Positions 26,437-54,057 of a stretch of 64,000 nt of DNA are shown piece by piece. The position numbers and the translations under genes are program-made. How positions within the stretch are numbered: position 1 is the stretch's first letter; each line of letters opens with the position of its first letter. The DNA lies in assembly GCA_014729505.1 (NCBI GenBank), contig WJJS01000015.1, positions 35,300-99,299 of the forward strand, given 5' to 3'. Under the pieces are notes generated by a model that made no database searches, had not been told where the DNA came from, and saw only the letters and a program-made list of their open reading frames with translations. The stretch is from Candidatus Woesearchaeota archaeon (GTDB lineage: Archaea; Nanobdellota; Nanobdellia; Woesearchaeales; ARS49).

Positions 26437-26724
26437 ATGTCCGCAAGACTTAAAAGCAAACGAGAAGAAATTTCCTCCATGTATCGACTAGAACACTGCA
26501 CCACAAAAGCCGCGTTTAAAGCAGAACCAACGCAAAAGACCACACTAGATCTTGAAACACTGCGCCATAGCTACACCGTACTGCTTGATGCAGGACTGGT
26601 CATTGTACTGCGCATCAACAATACAGAAGTCATCACCCATTCATACGGCGAACTGCTCATCAAAACGGACGACAAAAACAAGGCAGAACACATTGCACAA
26701 ACAGTGTATACTCATAAAACATGA
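26437..26724 (+). CDS. hypothetical small protein upstream of the thiI-like gene
   Basis: 95 aa; ATGA overlap with the next gene. Confidence 0.25.
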   Translation: MSARLKSKREEISSMYRLEHCTTKAAFKAEPTQKTTLDLETLRHSYTVLLDAGLVIVLRINNTEVITHSYGELLIKTDDKNKAEHIAQTVYTHKT

Positions 26725-27344
26725 AAGCAATACTCTTACTCTCAGGAGGATTTGACAGCATCGTCGCATACGATATGCTGAAAAAATATTACGAGATAGA
26801 CGCGATACATTTCCACTACGCCCCCATTACGGACAAAAAAAGTACAGAAAAAGCACTCGCTCTTGCAAAGCACATCGGATTGTCAAGAGTACACGTTTGC
26901 GCCATCGCACCCGTAGAAGCAGAAATACTCAAGCATTGCGACAAAAAACACTTCTTTGTGCTCTCAAAACGAAGCATGATGCGCATTGCCGCACTCCTCG
27001 CAAAAGAATTGGGAGCAGAAGCACTGATAACAGGAGAAAGTCTGGGCCAAGTCGCAAGTCAAACACTACAACATCTTGCCATTATCGCAGATGCAGTACC
27101 GCTTCCAGTACTGCGACCATTGCTAACATGGAACAAGGAAGAAATCATTCAACACTCCCGACGAATAGGAACATACGATATTGCCAAAGGACCAGAAATG
27201 TGCAATATCCTCGGACCAAAACATCCCGCCACCAATGCAACACTGCGCGCCATACAACAACAGGAAAGAAATTTCGACAAAGAACAATTGGCACAAACGA
27301 GTTATCAGGAACGAGAACTCATTCTTCTACATCCTCCATTATAA
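26721..27344 (+). CDS. ThiI-like PP-loop ATP pyrophosphatase (stand-alone adenylation domain)
   Basis: PP-loop SGGFDS and the ThiI-type motif ITGESLGQVASQTL; no THUMP domain in this ORF. Confidence 0.65.
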   Translation: MKAILLLSGGFDSIVAYDMLKKYYEIDAIHFHYAPITDKKSTEKALALAKHIGLSRVHVCAIAPVEAEILKHCDKKHFFVLSKRSMMRIAALLAKELGAEALITGESLGQVASQTLQHLAIIADAVPLPVLRPLLTWNKEEIIQHSRRIGTYDIAKGPEMCNILGPKHPATNATLRAIQQQERNFDKEQLAQTSYQERELILLHPPL

Positions 27345-39131: not shown

Positions 39132-39682
39132 AAGAACTGTTTCGAAAACTCTTCCACATGCTCGTCGGACTACTGCTCATAGCAGGTTATTTTTTAGCAC
39201 AACAATGGATAAGTCTCACCGCAATCTATTACCTTCTTTTTGTTGGTATGACTAGCAGTTTAGTTATTGACGCTGTTCTCGCGCATCTAAACTGGTCAGC
39301 ACCGGGCTACAAACAATTACAACGACAACATGAACGCAACGGTATTCATAGCAACAGTTATTTCCTTCTTGGAACACTGCTCTCATTTATCATGTTTGAA
39401 CAGCACATCGCACTTGCAGCAATACTGATGCTTATCTTTGGCGATGCATTAGCAGCACTCGTCGGCAAACGATGGGGAACACCATTTCTTGGCCAAAAAA
39501 GCATAGAAGGAAGTCTAACCATGTTTGTCGTCAGCCTGATCGTAGGTTTATTTGTTGTCGAATCACTGCCCGTCGTCTTTATTATGGCAATAACAGCAAT
39601 GATTGCAGAGCGTTTTTCCGGATCTCTTGATGATAACGTGATGATACCATTATTTGCAGGACTTACAGGATCACTACTCTAA
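39128..39682 (+). CDS. CTP-transferase family 1 membrane protein (CdsA/dolichol-kinase-like)
   Basis: C-terminal motif LIFGDALAALVGKRWGTPFLG..KSIEGSLTMF typical of the CdsA/Sec59 family; start taken at MKELF (39128) overlapping the carS stop. Confidence 0.55.
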   Translation: MKELFRKLFHMLVGLLLIAGYFLAQQWISLTAIYYLLFVGMTSSLVIDAVLAHLNWSAPGYKQLQRQHERNGIHSNSYFLLGTLLSFIMFEQHIALAAILMLIFGDALAALVGKRWGTPFLGQKSIEGSLTMFVVSLIVGLFVVESLPVVFIMAITAMIAERFSGSLDDNVMIPLFAGLTGSLL

Positions 39683-40182
39683 AACACAAACCATGACACG
39701 AAAGCGATGAGCACCAAGAGCGTCATAGAAAGAAAAACGCTTCTAATACCAGTTCTTTGAAACAATAAAGATCCTGTTGGAAATCCAAGAAGAAACGCAA
39801 GCGACGCAACCATCTGCAATTGTCCGACGCGATAACCTGCTAAAAGGGCTGCGCCTAGTAATCCGTACAAGACGTATTGGCTCGGCGATCCTTCATGACA
39901 AAGCCAACACAACGGAGACGAGACATTCTTGAAGTGCAGGAGTGCCACAAGCAGTACCAGCACACCGATAATACCGCTTGTCACGATTGTCGACAAGAAA
40001 CCAGACAAAAACACCCAGGCAATGAGCAGCACGAAAATTTCTTGACTGAACTGCAAAAACACCCGTGCATGAACAAGTTCTTCCTTAGCCCATTTTCCAA
40101 CGAGAAAACCAAGAAGAAGACCGACTGATGAAATAACACTGAGAGCAAGATAGACCATTATTCCCATTGAGAATGACCCCAC
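39679..40182 (-). CDS. membrane protein
   Basis: 5 TM helices. Confidence 0.35.
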   Translation of the reverse strand: MGSFSMGIMVYLALSVISSVGLLLGFLVGKWAKEELVHARVFLQFSQEIFVLLIAWVFLSGFLSTIVTSGIIGVLVLLVALLHFKNVSSPLCWLCHEGSPSQYVLYGLLGAALLAGYRVGQLQMVASLAFLLGFPTGSLLFQRTGIRSVFLSMTLLVLIAFVSWFVF

Positions 40183-40409
40183 TGAATAAGCAAATCGACA
40201 CCAAGACGTTCGACTTCAAGCGGGATGTCGCAAGCACCATAACACGAGCCAAGCCAAATAATGATCTGAGCAGATGTATGAGCAGTGAGATGATCATAGA
40301 TTTCACCAGCTCGAGGCTTAAGACCGTCAGGTAATTGAATACAAACTGTTTTAGCCTTCTCATCGATTATGCGCTTCACTACACGATCCAGTTCCAAATC
40401 ATAATGCAT
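40158..40409 (-). pseudogene. dph2: N-terminal fragment of diphthamide synthesis protein Dph2 (83 aa; truncated)
   Basis: YDLELDRVVKRIIDEKAKTVCIQLPDGLK...GSCYGACDI...GHS matches the Dph2 N-terminus; the ORF stops after GHSQWE; the remaining ~250 aa including the Fe-S cysteines are absent, and the downstream ORF is an unrelated membrane protein in another frame. Confidence 0.45.
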
Positions 40410-40444
40410 ACGTTCTGCTGAGAAAAAAAGGTATAAAAAGATAA

Positions 40445-40556
40445 CGCCCCCGGCAGGATTTGAACCTGCGACCTGACGGTCTCTTTCAAAGCTTGCTTAG
40501 AGCAACAAGCGAAGCAAGATAACAGCCGTCCGCTCTAACCACTGAGCCACAGGGGC
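40445..40556 (-). tRNA. tRNA-Asn (GUU) with a 39-nt intron at the 37/38 position
   Basis: Manual fold: acceptor GCCCCTG/CGGGGGC, D arm GCTCAGTGGTTAGAGC, anticodon stem GACGG/CCGTC, loop CTGTTA|intron|A, T arm GCAGG-TTCAAAT-CCTGC; intron lies at plus 40481-40519. Confidence 0.8.
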
Positions 40557-40768
40557 ATGATCGCTTGAGCAAGTCAGAGATTTATAAACGTTTCGCGACA
40601 AGTCAGGCGGTGACTGCGCTTTTTGTCAGCTCTTGTTACAGACATCGCTGCATTATGCGCGACGCGCACCTGTTAGCACTTATTGCTACCATGTGCACTG
40701 CCCTGAAATGCGCCAGCTCCTTTGGAGTTGCACAATCCTTAAATAACGCGCTTGTCTTTTTTTGCGTT

Positions 40769-42505: not shown

Positions 42506-44011
42506 TTGATGTGTGAGCATATGATTTCAACGATAGCTGCGCCGACGACAGATCCAGTACTCAATCTTGCACTTGACACGGTGCGACAAGGAAAACAAGC
42601 GCTCGTCTTTGTAAACACCAAGCGATCGGCAGAAAAAGTAGCTGAAGAGATCAGTAAAAGAATTGAAGGCAAAGCATACAACGCACTAGCAGAAAAAGTT
42701 CTTGGAGCATTGTCAAAACCAACAAAACAATGCAAACGATTAGCTGCAATCATCAAAAAAGGAGTGGCCTTTCACCACGCAGGACTTGCCAGTGCGCAAA
42801 AACACCTGATAGAAGACACTTTCCGTGAAGGAAAAGTCAGCATTATTTGTTGCACACCGACATTGGCTGCAGGACTCAACCTACCAGCGTACCGCGCTAT
42901 CATACGAGATCTTAAACGATATGCAGGACGATTTGGCATGCGATTTATTCCCGTCCTTGAATACCACCAAATGGCAGGGCGGGCAGGACGACCTGGCTAT
43001 GATGATCACGGCGAAGCAATTATTGTTGCCACTGCACAAGCAGAAGCAGACGACATCTATGACGAATATATTTGCGGCGAACCTGAAAACATCCAATCAA
43101 AACTCAACGTTGAACCGGTCATGCGCACGTATTTATTATCACTTATCTCGTCAAAAATCATCCAAACGGATGATCAAATACTTGATTTTTTCAAAGATAC
43201 GTTTTGGGCATACCAGTACGAAGATATGGCACGACTCGAGGACACCATATACAAAACATTATCTGTATTGTTGAAATGGCAGTTCTTACTTGAACAAGAC
43301 GGGAAATACCGCGCAACAGCAATCGGACACCGCGTAGCACAACTCTATCTCGACCCGCTAACCGCACATCATATCGTCAAAGGCATCAAACGATCACCAA
43401 CAGTAGCACTGCGACCAGTGAGCTTTATACAACTCGTCTGTCACACCAATGAAATGTGGCCATTACTCTCAGTGAAATCAAAAGAATACGAACTAGTACA
43501 ACAAAAAGTAGTTGAATGGGAAAACCAATTACTTGACAAAGAACCAAGCATGTTTGAACTCGATTACGAAGACTGGCTTAAAAGCATCAAGACAAGCCTG
43601 CTCTTTTTGGACTGGATCGATGAGCACAGCGAAAACTATCTCCTCGAAACCTACAATGTTCGACCGGGAGAACTCAAAGCAAAACTAGACAAAGCAGAAT
43701 GGTTATTGTATGGCATGTCGGAACTCTCCATACTCCTTGATCGCCACGATCTCGTGTCTCACATTAGCAAAGTACGCATACGACTCAAAAACGGCGTGCG
43801 AGAAGAACTGTTGCCATTATTAAAACTCAAAGGAGTGGGACGCGTACGAGCACGACAACTCTTTAGACACGGAATAAAAATTCCATCAGATCTGATCAAA
43901 GCAAAAGCCACGCTTCCCCGACTCTTAGGACCAAAAATAGCCAAGAACTTATTATCGCAATTAGGACATGAAATGGATACAAACACAGGACGGCTCGCTG
44001 ACTTTACATAG
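42506..44011 (+). CDS. Hel308/Ski2-type helicase, C-terminal half only (RecA2, winged helix, ratchet, HhH domains)
   Basis: Helicase motifs IV-VI (FHHAGL, QMAGRAGR) followed by WH/ratchet and a C-terminal HhH region; no Walker A/DEAH RecA1 domain, and only 72 bp of non-coding DNA lie upstream. Confidence 0.75.
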   Translation: MMCEHMISTIAAPTTDPVLNLALDTVRQGKQALVFVNTKRSAEKVAEEISKRIEGKAYNALAEKVLGALSKPTKQCKRLAAIIKKGVAFHHAGLASAQKHLIEDTFREGKVSIICCTPTLAAGLNLPAYRAIIRDLKRYAGRFGMRFIPVLEYHQMAGRAGRPGYDDHGEAIIVATAQAEADDIYDEYICGEPENIQSKLNVEPVMRTYLLSLISSKIIQTDDQILDFFKDTFWAYQYEDMARLEDTIYKTLSVLLKWQFLLEQDGKYRATAIGHRVAQLYLDPLTAHHIVKGIKRSPTVALRPVSFIQLVCHTNEMWPLLSVKSKEYELVQQKVVEWENQLLDKEPSMFELDYEDWLKSIKTSLLFLDWIDEHSENYLLETYNVRPGELKAKLDKAEWLLYGMSELSILLDRHDLVSHISKVRIRLKNGVREELLPLLKLKGVGRVRARQLFRHGIKIPSDLIKAKATLPRLLGPKIAKNLLSQLGHEMDTNTGRLADFT

Positions 44012-44766: not shown

Positions 44767-44858
44767 GCCCGAGTAGTATAGTCTGGATAGTACGCACGGT
44801 TGCGGAAGAATACTTTTGCAAAATCCGTGTAACCGGGGTTCGAATCCTCGCTCGGGCA
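44767..44858 (+). tRNA. tRNA-Arg (GCG) with an 18-nt intron at 37/38
   Basis: Acceptor GCCCGAG/CTCGGGC, anticodon stem CACGG/CCGTG, loop TTGCGG|intron 44806-44823|T, T arm CGGGG-TTCGAAT-CCTCG, discriminator A. Confidence 0.7.
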
Positions 44859-51762: not shown

Positions 51763-52206
51763 TTGCCCCCGCATGGAAGGGCTCTTTTTACTATGGTAGC
51801 CGAGACAGAACTTTTGGGACGCGCACTTTTAGCAGTAGGAGTTGGCGCGCTCATCGGACTTGAGCGAGAAATACGACGAAGTCCTGCAGGACTGCGAACA
51901 CATACCCTGGTCTGTTTGGGATCCGCACTTTTTACTATTGCCTCAATTACTATTGGCGGCAACGCAGACATTTCCCGCATCGCAGGACAAGTAGCAGTAG
52001 GTATAGGATTTCTCGGTGGCGGCGTGATCTTCAAACTCAAAGACAGAGTCGTAGGTCTTACCACTGCAGCAGATTTATGGGTGGTTGCAGCACTAGGACT
52101 TCTCATAGGCATTGGACAGTACCTGCTGGTCTTTGTCTCACTCGCACTCGTATTGTTCCTCCTCATAGGCGGCGCGTTTCTTGAAAAAAAAGGTTTGCAC
52201 ACATGA
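51763..52206 (+). CDS. MgtC/SapB family membrane protein
   Basis: GLEREIRRSPAGLRTHTLVCLGSA and GLTTAADLW motifs. Confidence 0.75.
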   Translation: MPPHGRALFTMVAETELLGRALLAVGVGALIGLEREIRRSPAGLRTHTLVCLGSALFTIASITIGGNADISRIAGQVAVGIGFLGGGVIFKLKDRVVGLTTAADLWVVAALGLLIGIGQYLLVFVSLALVLFLLIGGAFLEKKGLHT

Positions 52207-52967
52207 GTCTGGCATTCATAGGACTAGGACTAGCAACAGAACAAGACGTAAGCACAGGAGCACTTGAACTCATACAAAAAGCAGACGTTCTCTACCTAGA
52301 AACATATACTTCTGTTCTGCAATGTAGTATCAAAGACCTGGAGAAATTTTATGGTCATGATATTATCAAAGCAGACCGAGAACTCGTTGAGCAACGAGCA
52401 GAAGACACGATACTCCACGATGCGAAAACACAACAAGTCTGCTTTCTAGTCATCGGCGACGTGTTCAGCGCAACTACGCATCTGGATCTCTATCGTCGCG
52501 CAAAAGAACTCCGCATACCAATCAGCGTCCATCATAATGCCTCCGTGCTGACAGCCGTGGGCGCCACTGGATTACAACTCTACAAATTTGGCAAAGTCAC
52601 CTCAATCCCCCTAGAACATGAACAGGTGACCACTCCCTACGAATATCTAGGCCAGAACAAATCCATTGGTGCCCACACGCTGTTTCTCCTCGATCTTCGA
52701 CCAGATGAGAACCGATTTCTTTTGATTCGTGAAGCAATAGAGTACCTCTTACAACAAGAATCAAAACAGAAAAAAGGATTGCTCACCAAGAAAACCAAGG
52801 CAATAGGTTGTGCCCGGTTGGGAAGCAAGGACGCAGTGATACACTATGGAACACTTGAAGCATTGACAAGACAAGAATTTGGCAACGCACCATATTGTCT
52901 CATCATTCCAGGAGTTTTGCACTTCATGGAAGAAGAAACACTACAACTCTATACTATCAGACAATGA
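52203..52967 (+). CDS. dph5: diphthine synthase (tetrapyrrole-methylase superfamily)
   Basis: MSLAFIGLGL... N-terminus; typical Dph5 length and motifs; ATGA-coupled to the MgtC gene. Confidence 0.85.
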   Translation: MSLAFIGLGLATEQDVSTGALELIQKADVLYLETYTSVLQCSIKDLEKFYGHDIIKADRELVEQRAEDTILHDAKTQQVCFLVIGDVFSATTHLDLYRRAKELRIPISVHHNASVLTAVGATGLQLYKFGKVTSIPLEHEQVTTPYEYLGQNKSIGAHTLFLLDLRPDENRFLLIREAIEYLLQQESKQKKGLLTKKTKAIGCARLGSKDAVIHYGTLEALTRQEFGNAPYCLIIPGVLHFMEEETLQLYTIRQ

Positions 52968-52986: not shown

Positions 52987-54057
52987 ATGCACATGGCCGC
53001 ACTAGACTGCTTACAGAAATCCATTGAACACGTCGAACTCCTCCTACACTGGTTTGCCACATCACATTTTAGCGGCCAATTACGAGATCTTCTCGAAGAT
53101 TATCAGCGCGATGCGCAAGCAATAGAAGAAAGCGGTGCTTCAGAAGACGAACAATTTGATGATCTAGTAGCACTTGAAGAAAGTGTGCAAATCCATTCCA
53201 AAGAATTTGATTATTCATCAGGACTCCATCGATTACAAGTAGTAGCCGGACAAGTCCTCACCTGTATACAAGATATTTTGACCTCGCTAACAGGTTCTAC
53301 TGTTGCACATCCTACTATTCCAGGACTTCACGAACCACGAACAACAGTTGAAGACAGAATAACACTTGTTAAAAAAGAATGTAGCGAAGAATTTCAAAAA
53401 GCAGAGAACGCCGCGCGCACGATCGCGTCATACACTCCTTCGATCATTACTGCACTAGACAATCAACGATTCAAAGAAGCACAAGATCTCACCCTTGCGT
53501 GCCGCCAGATAGTACAAGACATCATCACCTCTCTTACCCGCGTGCTAGCACTATTACGCTCCCTTCTCAGCGGAGTAACGTACAAATACTACAAACATAG
53601 CTATTACTGGACGTATGATAGTGCGTATGCGACAGAATTGCAAGAAGGCCATGTGCTTAGGGGAGTACTCAATGTTGTACACGCCGTCCAAACAAAAATA
53701 GCAGAAATGCTTGATGAGGGAAAACCGCTACCTGATAACGCGTTTCAACTCTCCATGCGAACAGGAACAATAGAACAAACAAGTGGCGGACTTATGATGG
53801 GAAGACAGGATGCAGGCAAACATACACGAATACTGTTTTACTGTTACAGAAAACCACACACATCCGTAATCGACATTCGATTCTGTGAATACATCGGACA
53901 CGATACTCATAACGAAGGAGTAGCAAAAAATAAAGGACGTTATGCAGATCTCATCAATGGCCTGCTCGCCAGAAACACATATGGAGCGATTCATCACGAA
54001 GACAAGGATTTTAACGAGACCTGGATATATTGTGCAACGGTGGCAGATATCCTCTGA
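52987..54057 (+). CDS. hypothetical protein
   Basis: 356 aa, helical, no recognisable domain. Confidence 0.35.
   Translation: MHMAALDCLQKSIEHVELLLHWFATSHFSGQLRDLLEDYQRDAQAIEESGASEDEQFDDLVALEESVQIHSKEFDYSSGLHRLQVVAGQVLTCIQDILTSLTGSTVAHPTIPGLHEPRTTVEDRITLVKKECSEEFQKAENAARTIASYTPSIITALDNQRFKEAQDLTLACRQIVQDIITSLTRVLALLRSLLSGVTYKYYKHSYYWTYDSAYATELQEGHVLRGVLNVVHAVQTKIAEMLDEGKPLPDNAFQLSMRTGTIEQTSGGLMMGRQDAGKHTRILFYCYRKPHTSVIDIRFCEYIGHDTHNEGVAKNKGRYADLINGLLARNTYGAIHHEDKDFNETWIYCATVADIL

Follow-up and report, generated by a model that had tools for sequence, protein, structure and literature searches.

A short Dph2-like open reading frame in a Woesearchaeota genome as the probable N-terminal subunit gene of a split Dph2

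The stretch of DNA analysed here, called the window throughout, comprises 64,000 nucleotides of a Woesearchaeota contig and carries on its minus strand a short open reading frame (ORF) that we call dph2-N. This ORF extends from an ATG at 40409 to a TAA at 40158, and its predicted 83-aa product (MHYDLELDRVVKRIIDEKAKTVCIQLPDGLKPRAGEIYDHLTAHTSAQIIIWLGSCYGACDIPLEVERLGVDLLIQWGHSQWE) includes the motif QLPDGLK, a Cys60-Asp61 pair whose cysteine represents the first ligand of a [4Fe-4S] cluster, and the pair Gly78-His79. The protein, encoded on a contig of 100 kb, has been deposited as MBD3319024.1 (locus tag GF342_03885) with the label ‘hypothetical protein’. We annotate the feature (40158..40409, minus strand) as the probable gene for the N-terminal subunit of a split Dph2, which is a 2-(3-amino-3-carboxypropyl)histidine synthase.

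Archaeal Dph2 is normally a single chain of about 330 amino acids that carries three cysteines, one in each domain, and its [4Fe-4S] cluster cleaves SAM and transfers the 3-amino-3-carboxypropyl (ACP) group to a histidine of EF-2. In the Dph2 of Pyrococcus horikoshii, the cluster ligands are Cys59, Cys163 and Cys287 (PMC11048331). The dph2-N protein holds the first of these ligands (Cys60), and the other two are absent. An earlier note on this DNA, made from the sequence alone, had proposed that roughly 80 residues match the Dph2 N-terminus up to the GHS motif, and profile, alignment and fold comparisons all bear this out. The Pfam profile PF01866 (Diphthamide_syn) matches over its positions 1-56 of 302 (E 7e-12, 45.7 bits against a cutoff of 33.2), and TIGR00322 (Dph1/Dph2 domain) matches over positions 1-81 of 320 (E 1e-20, 74.1 bits against a cutoff of 35). 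The full-length equivalog TIGR03682 (arCOG04112) remains below its cutoff, with 60.4 bits against 202.8 and coverage of positions 1-64 of 308 only. Residues 7-84 of the Methanobrevibacter smithii protein (6q2d) align with dph2-N, including CxGACD and GHS (E 3.5e-13), as do residues 8-84 of the Dph2 from Candidatus Methanoperedens. An AlphaFold model built from 45 relatives (pLDDT 86) predicts a helix (7-16), a strand (21-25), a second helix (28-44), a second strand (48-52), the cysteine loop and a third strand (73-76). When this model was compared with the PDB, the best 15 matches were all Dph2 (TM scores 0.74-0.85, rmsd 1.6-3.6 Å), there was no superposition beyond Dph2, and further matches had E values above 0.07. 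The predicted product is a fragment-sized subunit and not a complete chain with the three domains of Dph2.

Upstream of dph2-N lies a tRNA-Asn(GTT) gene (40444-40557, minus strand) with a 39-nt intron at the canonical 37/38 site, which was missed by the default tRNA scan and found by Rfam (59.9 bits) and by the intron mode of ARAGORN. It ends 35 nt before the dph2-N gene, and within this spacer we read a TATA-box-like element, TTTTTATA (40432..40439, minus strand). The centre of the element lies some 26 nt before the ATG, which suggests that dph2-N has its own promoter and is expressed from a leaderless or near-leaderless mRNA.

The reading frame stops 4 residues past GHS, so that the protein ends with GHSQWE. 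As the earlier note had correctly observed, an unrelated ORF for a membrane protein follows in a different frame. This small gene (39679..40167, minus strand) encodes a hydrophobic protein of 162 aa, counted from the ATG at 40167, with about four predicted transmembrane segments that bears no resemblance to Dph2. The first 10 nt of this gene are also the last 10 nt of dph2-N, and its ATG lies inside the penultimate codon, for Trp, of dph2-N (CA ATG GGA ATA A). The two genes are probably co-transcribed and translationally coupled. Further downstream, a convergent plus-strand gene ends at 39682, and hence there is no room behind dph2-N for the missing 250 or so residues. Nor is there a second Dph2-like sequence in the six frames of the 64-kb window, where neither a profile built from 10 full-length Dph2 proteins nor one of C-terminal halves from DPANN archaea matched anything but dph2-N. 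Pfam scans of about 75 window ORFs likewise returned no second match to PF01866. A tblastn search of the window with an approximate P. horikoshii Dph2 query missed even dph2-N, and HMMs made from real sequences were used instead.

The window also contains dph5 (52203..52967, plus strand), the gene for diphthine synthase, which carries out step 2 of diphthamide synthesis. The earlier note had described Dph5 as full length, and the equivalog TIGR00522 agrees, matching at 254.7 bits (cutoff 114.3) over positions 2-252 of 258. The presence of this intact gene argues that the organism still carries out step 1. The window holds no gene for EF-2 or Dph6.

Stand-alone relatives of dph2-N are abundant. 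Of the 1,639 protein clusters that a search of 5.8 billion proteins yielded, the best 120 are all 82-102 aa long and 65-77% identical to the query, with source names, where given, of Woesearchaeota or Nanoarchaeota. An exhaustive search of representatives at 50% identity gave 588 matches, among which short proteins rank highest and the first full-length Dph2 (46-48% identity) does not appear until about rank 52. A scan of one genome per species gave at least 532 matches, and the best 80 loci are almost all from metagenome-assembled genomes of Woesearchaeota or Nanoarchaeota. The stand-alone N-terminal ORF is intact in each of the 85 species-level loci compared, where it encodes 79-125 aa and stops 1-18 residues past the GHx motif. 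All 85 carry the GH motif, and a regular expression recovered the Cys-Asp/Glu pair in 81 of them. When 144 unique N-terminal pieces (81 of the window's type, referred to below as type B, and 63 of a second type, A) were aligned, Cys60-Asp61 proved to be invariant, and the positions that are invariant in both types are Q25, P27, G29, K31, T45, W52, G58, C60, D61, P63, D72, G78 and H79. Judged from these sequences, dph2-N is a conserved gene and not a decaying remnant.

Homologues of the membrane protein are found directly downstream of the N-terminal gene in 24 of the 85 loci, usually overlapping its stop codon (jackhmmer E 1e-13 to 1e-45). Besides the window's copy (39679-40167, minus strand), the family is present at L001 (10249-10650), L003 (10249-10638) and 21 other loci. 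Its members are 108-170 aa long with 3-6 predicted transmembrane segments, and their genes as a rule begin within the final codons of dph2-N. Two motifs are conserved, which appear in the window's protein as KEEL..G..YF and G[FL]P[TA]G[ST]L and across the family as A-K-E-E-L-x-x-G-x-K-Y-F and G-[FL]-P-[TA]-G-[ST]-L, and no Pfam or NCBIfam family matched the protein. In other loci the downstream gene encodes an EamA-like transporter, a NUDIX-like protein, a DHH/RecJ-like protein, malic enzyme or another product. We read the membrane neighbour as conserved synteny within a subclade and not as a functional partnership. The tRNA-Asn gene precedes the N-terminal gene in 7 other loci.

The remainder of Dph2 also exists as a separate gene in this part of the archaeal tree. 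With a full-length profile, we found ORFs that cover Dph2 positions of about 90-315 and adjoin the N-terminal gene at L072, L074 and L076, and another such ORF 2 kb downstream of the N-terminal gene at L089. All four are in a frame different from that of the N-terminal gene and have their own ATG, which at L076 lies inside the last Trp codon of the N-terminal gene. Further C-terminal genes lie near N-terminal genes at L091, L093, L097, L100 and L103. On TIGR00322 (320 positions), the N-terminal piece covers 1-81 and the C-terminal piece 90-315, and thus the two are complementary and do not overlap. The C-terminal pieces begin with a strand-like MKTxFLEA, which matches the ‘V/I-x-Y/F-I-E-A’ segment that follows GHS in full-length Dph2, and the family keeps the LGC and ACPR motifs with the second and third cluster ligands. 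A profile of the four ORFs matched at least 4,989 proteins, and the best 120 of these are all stand-alone proteins of 226-269 aa. Where source names are given among the matches listed, they are Woesearchaeota or Nanoarchaeota, and some entries are labelled ‘2-(3-amino-3-carboxypropyl)histidine synthase subunit’. When the C-terminal parts of canonical Dph2 (A2) served as the query, almost only full-length proteins were returned. Two short C-terminal candidates were discarded: P0375 results from a wrongly called start in an ORF of 341 codons, and the contig of P0355 ends inside the gene. We found no pair of N- and C-terminal genes within one NCBI accession block and no C-terminal gene in viral contigs.

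Comparison of two sets of loci (L105-L184, L072, L074, L076, L089 and L091-L104 versus L001-L090) separates two architectures. The N-terminal piece of type A ends with GHN...W, whereas that of type B, to which the window belongs, ends with GHSxW, and the two form separate sequence clusters. In all five loci that were looked up, and in all 62 metagenome loci whose upstream sequence exceeds about 700 nt, the N-terminal gene lies just upstream of the C-terminal gene on the same strand. The gap between the two genes is 100 nt or less in 46 of these 62, and in 15 of them one unrelated small gene lies between. Wherever the context of a C-terminal gene was inspected, its N-terminal partner is of type A. 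For type B, no C-terminal gene was detected within 10 kb on either side of 76 species loci or of L001-L007, or in the 64-kb window. These searches relied on profiles and DNA patterns from type-A or canonical sequences and on the best 80-120 matches, and are biased against divergent C-terminal genes; the metagenome scan used patterns specific for type A (Y[IV]GDG[KRM]FH and similar) and returned only type-A loci. The missing type-B C-terminal gene may thus be an artefact of the queries and of the number of matches considered. Genes for CarS and a CDP-alcohol phosphatidyltransferase lie beside the N-terminal genes of both types, and from this shared neighbourhood we conclude that types A and B are positional orthologues that descend from the same ancestral locus. 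None of the loci examined has two N-terminal genes.

The small gene that separates the two dph2 genes at about one-quarter of type-A loci encodes a soluble protein of 93-260 aa from one of several families, and its stop and start codons often overlap those of its neighbours. Such insertions are present at L093 (9480-10004), L115, L118, L123, L139, L161, L162, L171, L176, L178, L181 and L184, and the junction between the two halves of dph2 seems to be a hotspot for gene insertion.

Gene fission of this kind has been described before. Narrowe et al. (2018, Genome Biol Evol, PMC6143161) reported split Dph1/2 from several lineages of DPANN archaea, Woesearchaeota among them, and Dombrowski et al. 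(2019, PMC6349945) list Parvarchaeota, Pacearchaeota, Woesearchaeota and Altiarchaeota. In the nanoarchaeote Nst1, the split DPH2 corresponds to genes 222 and 440 (Podar et al. 2013, PMC3655853). The distance between these two gene numbers indicates that the halves of Nst1 dph2 are dispersed. The window's dph2-N is the N-terminal gene of the published arrangement and differs from it in nothing essential. The short ORF is therefore explained by a gene fission already known in DPANN archaea and is in this sense ordinary. The earlier note had thought that a dph2 which is split or being lost would be notable, and this expectation falls away with these publications. In those parts of the three papers that were available, there is no mention of the exact break point 1-18 residues after GH[ST], of adjacent versus dispersed architectures, or of the recurrent coupling to a gene for a small membrane protein.

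We consider it likely that dph2-N encodes one subunit, the N-terminal one, of a split Dph2 whose partner gene lies elsewhere in the genome. That the window's own genome has a C-terminal partner is something we infer from its relatives, and the indirect case for a type-B partner draws on the invariant positions shared by types A and B, their positional orthology, the intact Dph5 and the dispersed halves in Nst1. In the scheme that we propose, dph2 of Woesearchaeota and Nanoarchaeota is broken just past the GH[ST] motif, such that the 83-aa product would contribute the first cysteine ligand together with the beta-alpha-beta-beta unit that opens the chain, and a separate product of about 230-255 aa would supply the rest of Dph2 with the GC and ACPR cysteines. 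The two chains would form a non-covalent complex bridged by the [4Fe-4S] cluster, and the working enzyme would probably be a dimer of heterodimers. Radical SAM-type cleavage should then permit ACP transfer to the EF-2 histidine, after which Dph5 would methylate the product. Because the model of dph2-N shows three strands only and MKTxFLEA resembles the segment after GHS, we suspect that the first strand of the C-terminal piece completes the N-terminal sheet. In the sister lineage, of type A, the two dph2 genes are still adjacent, whereas in the window's lineage, of type B, the C-terminal gene would have left the locus and should lie elsewhere in the genome.

Several other explanations deserve consideration. 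It is conceivable, though we think it unlikely, that the type-B C-terminal gene was lost and not moved, and that the 83-aa protein was kept for another job, possibly together with the membrane protein. The failure to find a type-B C-terminal gene in the window, near the species loci or in the metagenome scan would agree with this, but the bias of those searches is exactly of the type that would hide a divergent gene. In the 24 loci mentioned, the membrane ORF directly adjoins the N-terminal gene or overlaps it, yet this ORF is missing from most loci, and no fusion of the N-terminal piece with a membrane protein was seen among 26 mid-length representatives (125-300 aa) scanned. Type B has extra conserved cysteines at positions 23 and 56 that might hint at a separate function; however, canonical Dph2 has Cys56 as well, and many type-A pieces have Cys23. 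Moreover, the pattern of constraint equals that of type-A pieces with a partner next door, an Fe-S ligand and a GH motif have no obvious role alone, and Dph5 is intact. Slightly less likely still, in our estimation, is the bolder proposal that type-B Woesearchaeota have no C-terminal Dph2 gene anywhere in the genome, and that an orphan 83-aa domain with an Fe-S ligand is under strong selection with an unrecognised partner, such as the membrane protein, or complements a component supplied by a host. We find it likelier than such outright absence that adjacent versus dispersed halves are the mark of one ancient relocation event, which could serve as a clade marker.

We give somewhat less credence again to the idea that dph2-N is a duplicated N-terminal remnant in a genome that has a full-length dph2 or a type-A pair elsewhere; a second intact dph2 was among the options raised in the earlier note. 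Types A and B do form separate sequence clusters, as paralogues would, but their common neighbourhood of CarS and CDP-alcohol phosphatidyltransferase genes marks them as positional orthologues, and no locus carries two N-terminal genes. Furthermore, a redundant remnant would not be expected to keep 65-77% identity and invariant catalytic residues across hundreds of lineages. It is hardly credible that a recent frameshift, deletion or sequencing indel shortened a normal dph2, even though the bare fact of a truncation in a metagenome-assembled genome might bring this to mind. No Dph2-like residues follow the stop of the N-terminal ORF in any frame, and the space downstream is filled by a conserved membrane gene and the convergent gene. 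Since the short ORF recurs in more than 1,600 protein clusters and, intact, in 85 species-level assemblies that are independent of one another, we rule out a recent pseudogene, and the assembly frameshift that the earlier note had asked about fails on the same grounds. The same record decides between the two halves of that note's suggestion of a gene ‘split or undergoing loss’: the large conserved family of stand-alone N-terminal genes and the C-terminal genes of the clade support a split, and the 85 loci with the same stop position speak against loss. The short dph2-N is thus no sign that diphthamide is being lost in this lineage.

The split Dph2 preferred here can be set beside several known systems. 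The canonical archaeal homodimers (P. horikoshii 3LZD, M. smithii 6Q2D and Ca. Methanoperedens 6BXM) share 31-37% identity with dph2-N over residues of about 7-84 in structure-based alignments, and they have in common with it the fold of the first beta-alpha-beta-beta unit, the Cys-Asp cluster ligand and the GH motif. However, each canonical chain of about 330 aa has all three cysteine ligands, whereas the dph2-N protein has only the first. The eukaryotic Dph1-Dph2 heterodimer likewise performs step 1 of diphthamide synthesis with two different polypeptides of one family, but its subunits are full-length paralogues with a cluster each and not complementary fragments of one chain. A closer parallel is provided by the split genes of Nanoarchaeota, such as those for reverse gyrase, alanyl-tRNA synthetase and others, which also reflect fission in reduced DPANN genomes and whose halves are often dispersed and presumed to reassemble as proteins (PMC6349945, PMC3655853). 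Those genes encode other proteins, whereas the fission of dph2 is common to a very large, non-thermophilic clade.

These results have some practical consequences. PF01866/Dph2 is used as a single-copy archaeal marker, and in DPANN genomes the split gene looks truncated, duplicated or missing, a pitfall that Narrowe et al. (PMC6143161) had already pointed out. The annotation of MBD3319024.1 should be changed to ‘Dph2 N-terminal subunit’. If confirmed on complete genomes, the two dph2 architectures, with halves adjacent or with the C-terminal gene absent from the locus, could help DPANN phylogenomics.

Some other genes of the window merit brief mention. An ORF of 356 aa (52987-54057, plus strand) starts 20 nt after dph5, matches no Pfam family significantly and does not resemble the Dph2 profiles. 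A tRNA-Arg(GCG) gene with an 18-nt intron (44767-44858, plus strand; Rfam 49.2 bits) was missed by the default tRNA scan. A Hel308-type helicase of 501 aa (42506-44011, plus strand) matches the Hel308 models only over positions of about 222-710 of 739 (Helicase_C, HTH_61, domain 4 and HHH) and lacks the first RecA-like domain that carries the ATP-binding motifs, and no DEAD-type domain was found in any window ORF. Helicases of 488-511 aa with the same architecture recur at L005, L006, L007 and L091, and this looks like a second split or N-terminally shortened gene in the lineage. Finally, in a 207-aa protein (26721-27344, plus strand) the ThiI/PP-loop domain (PF02568, positions 5-195 of 197) is the only ThiI-associated domain that matched, and this protein may be another reduced or split enzyme.
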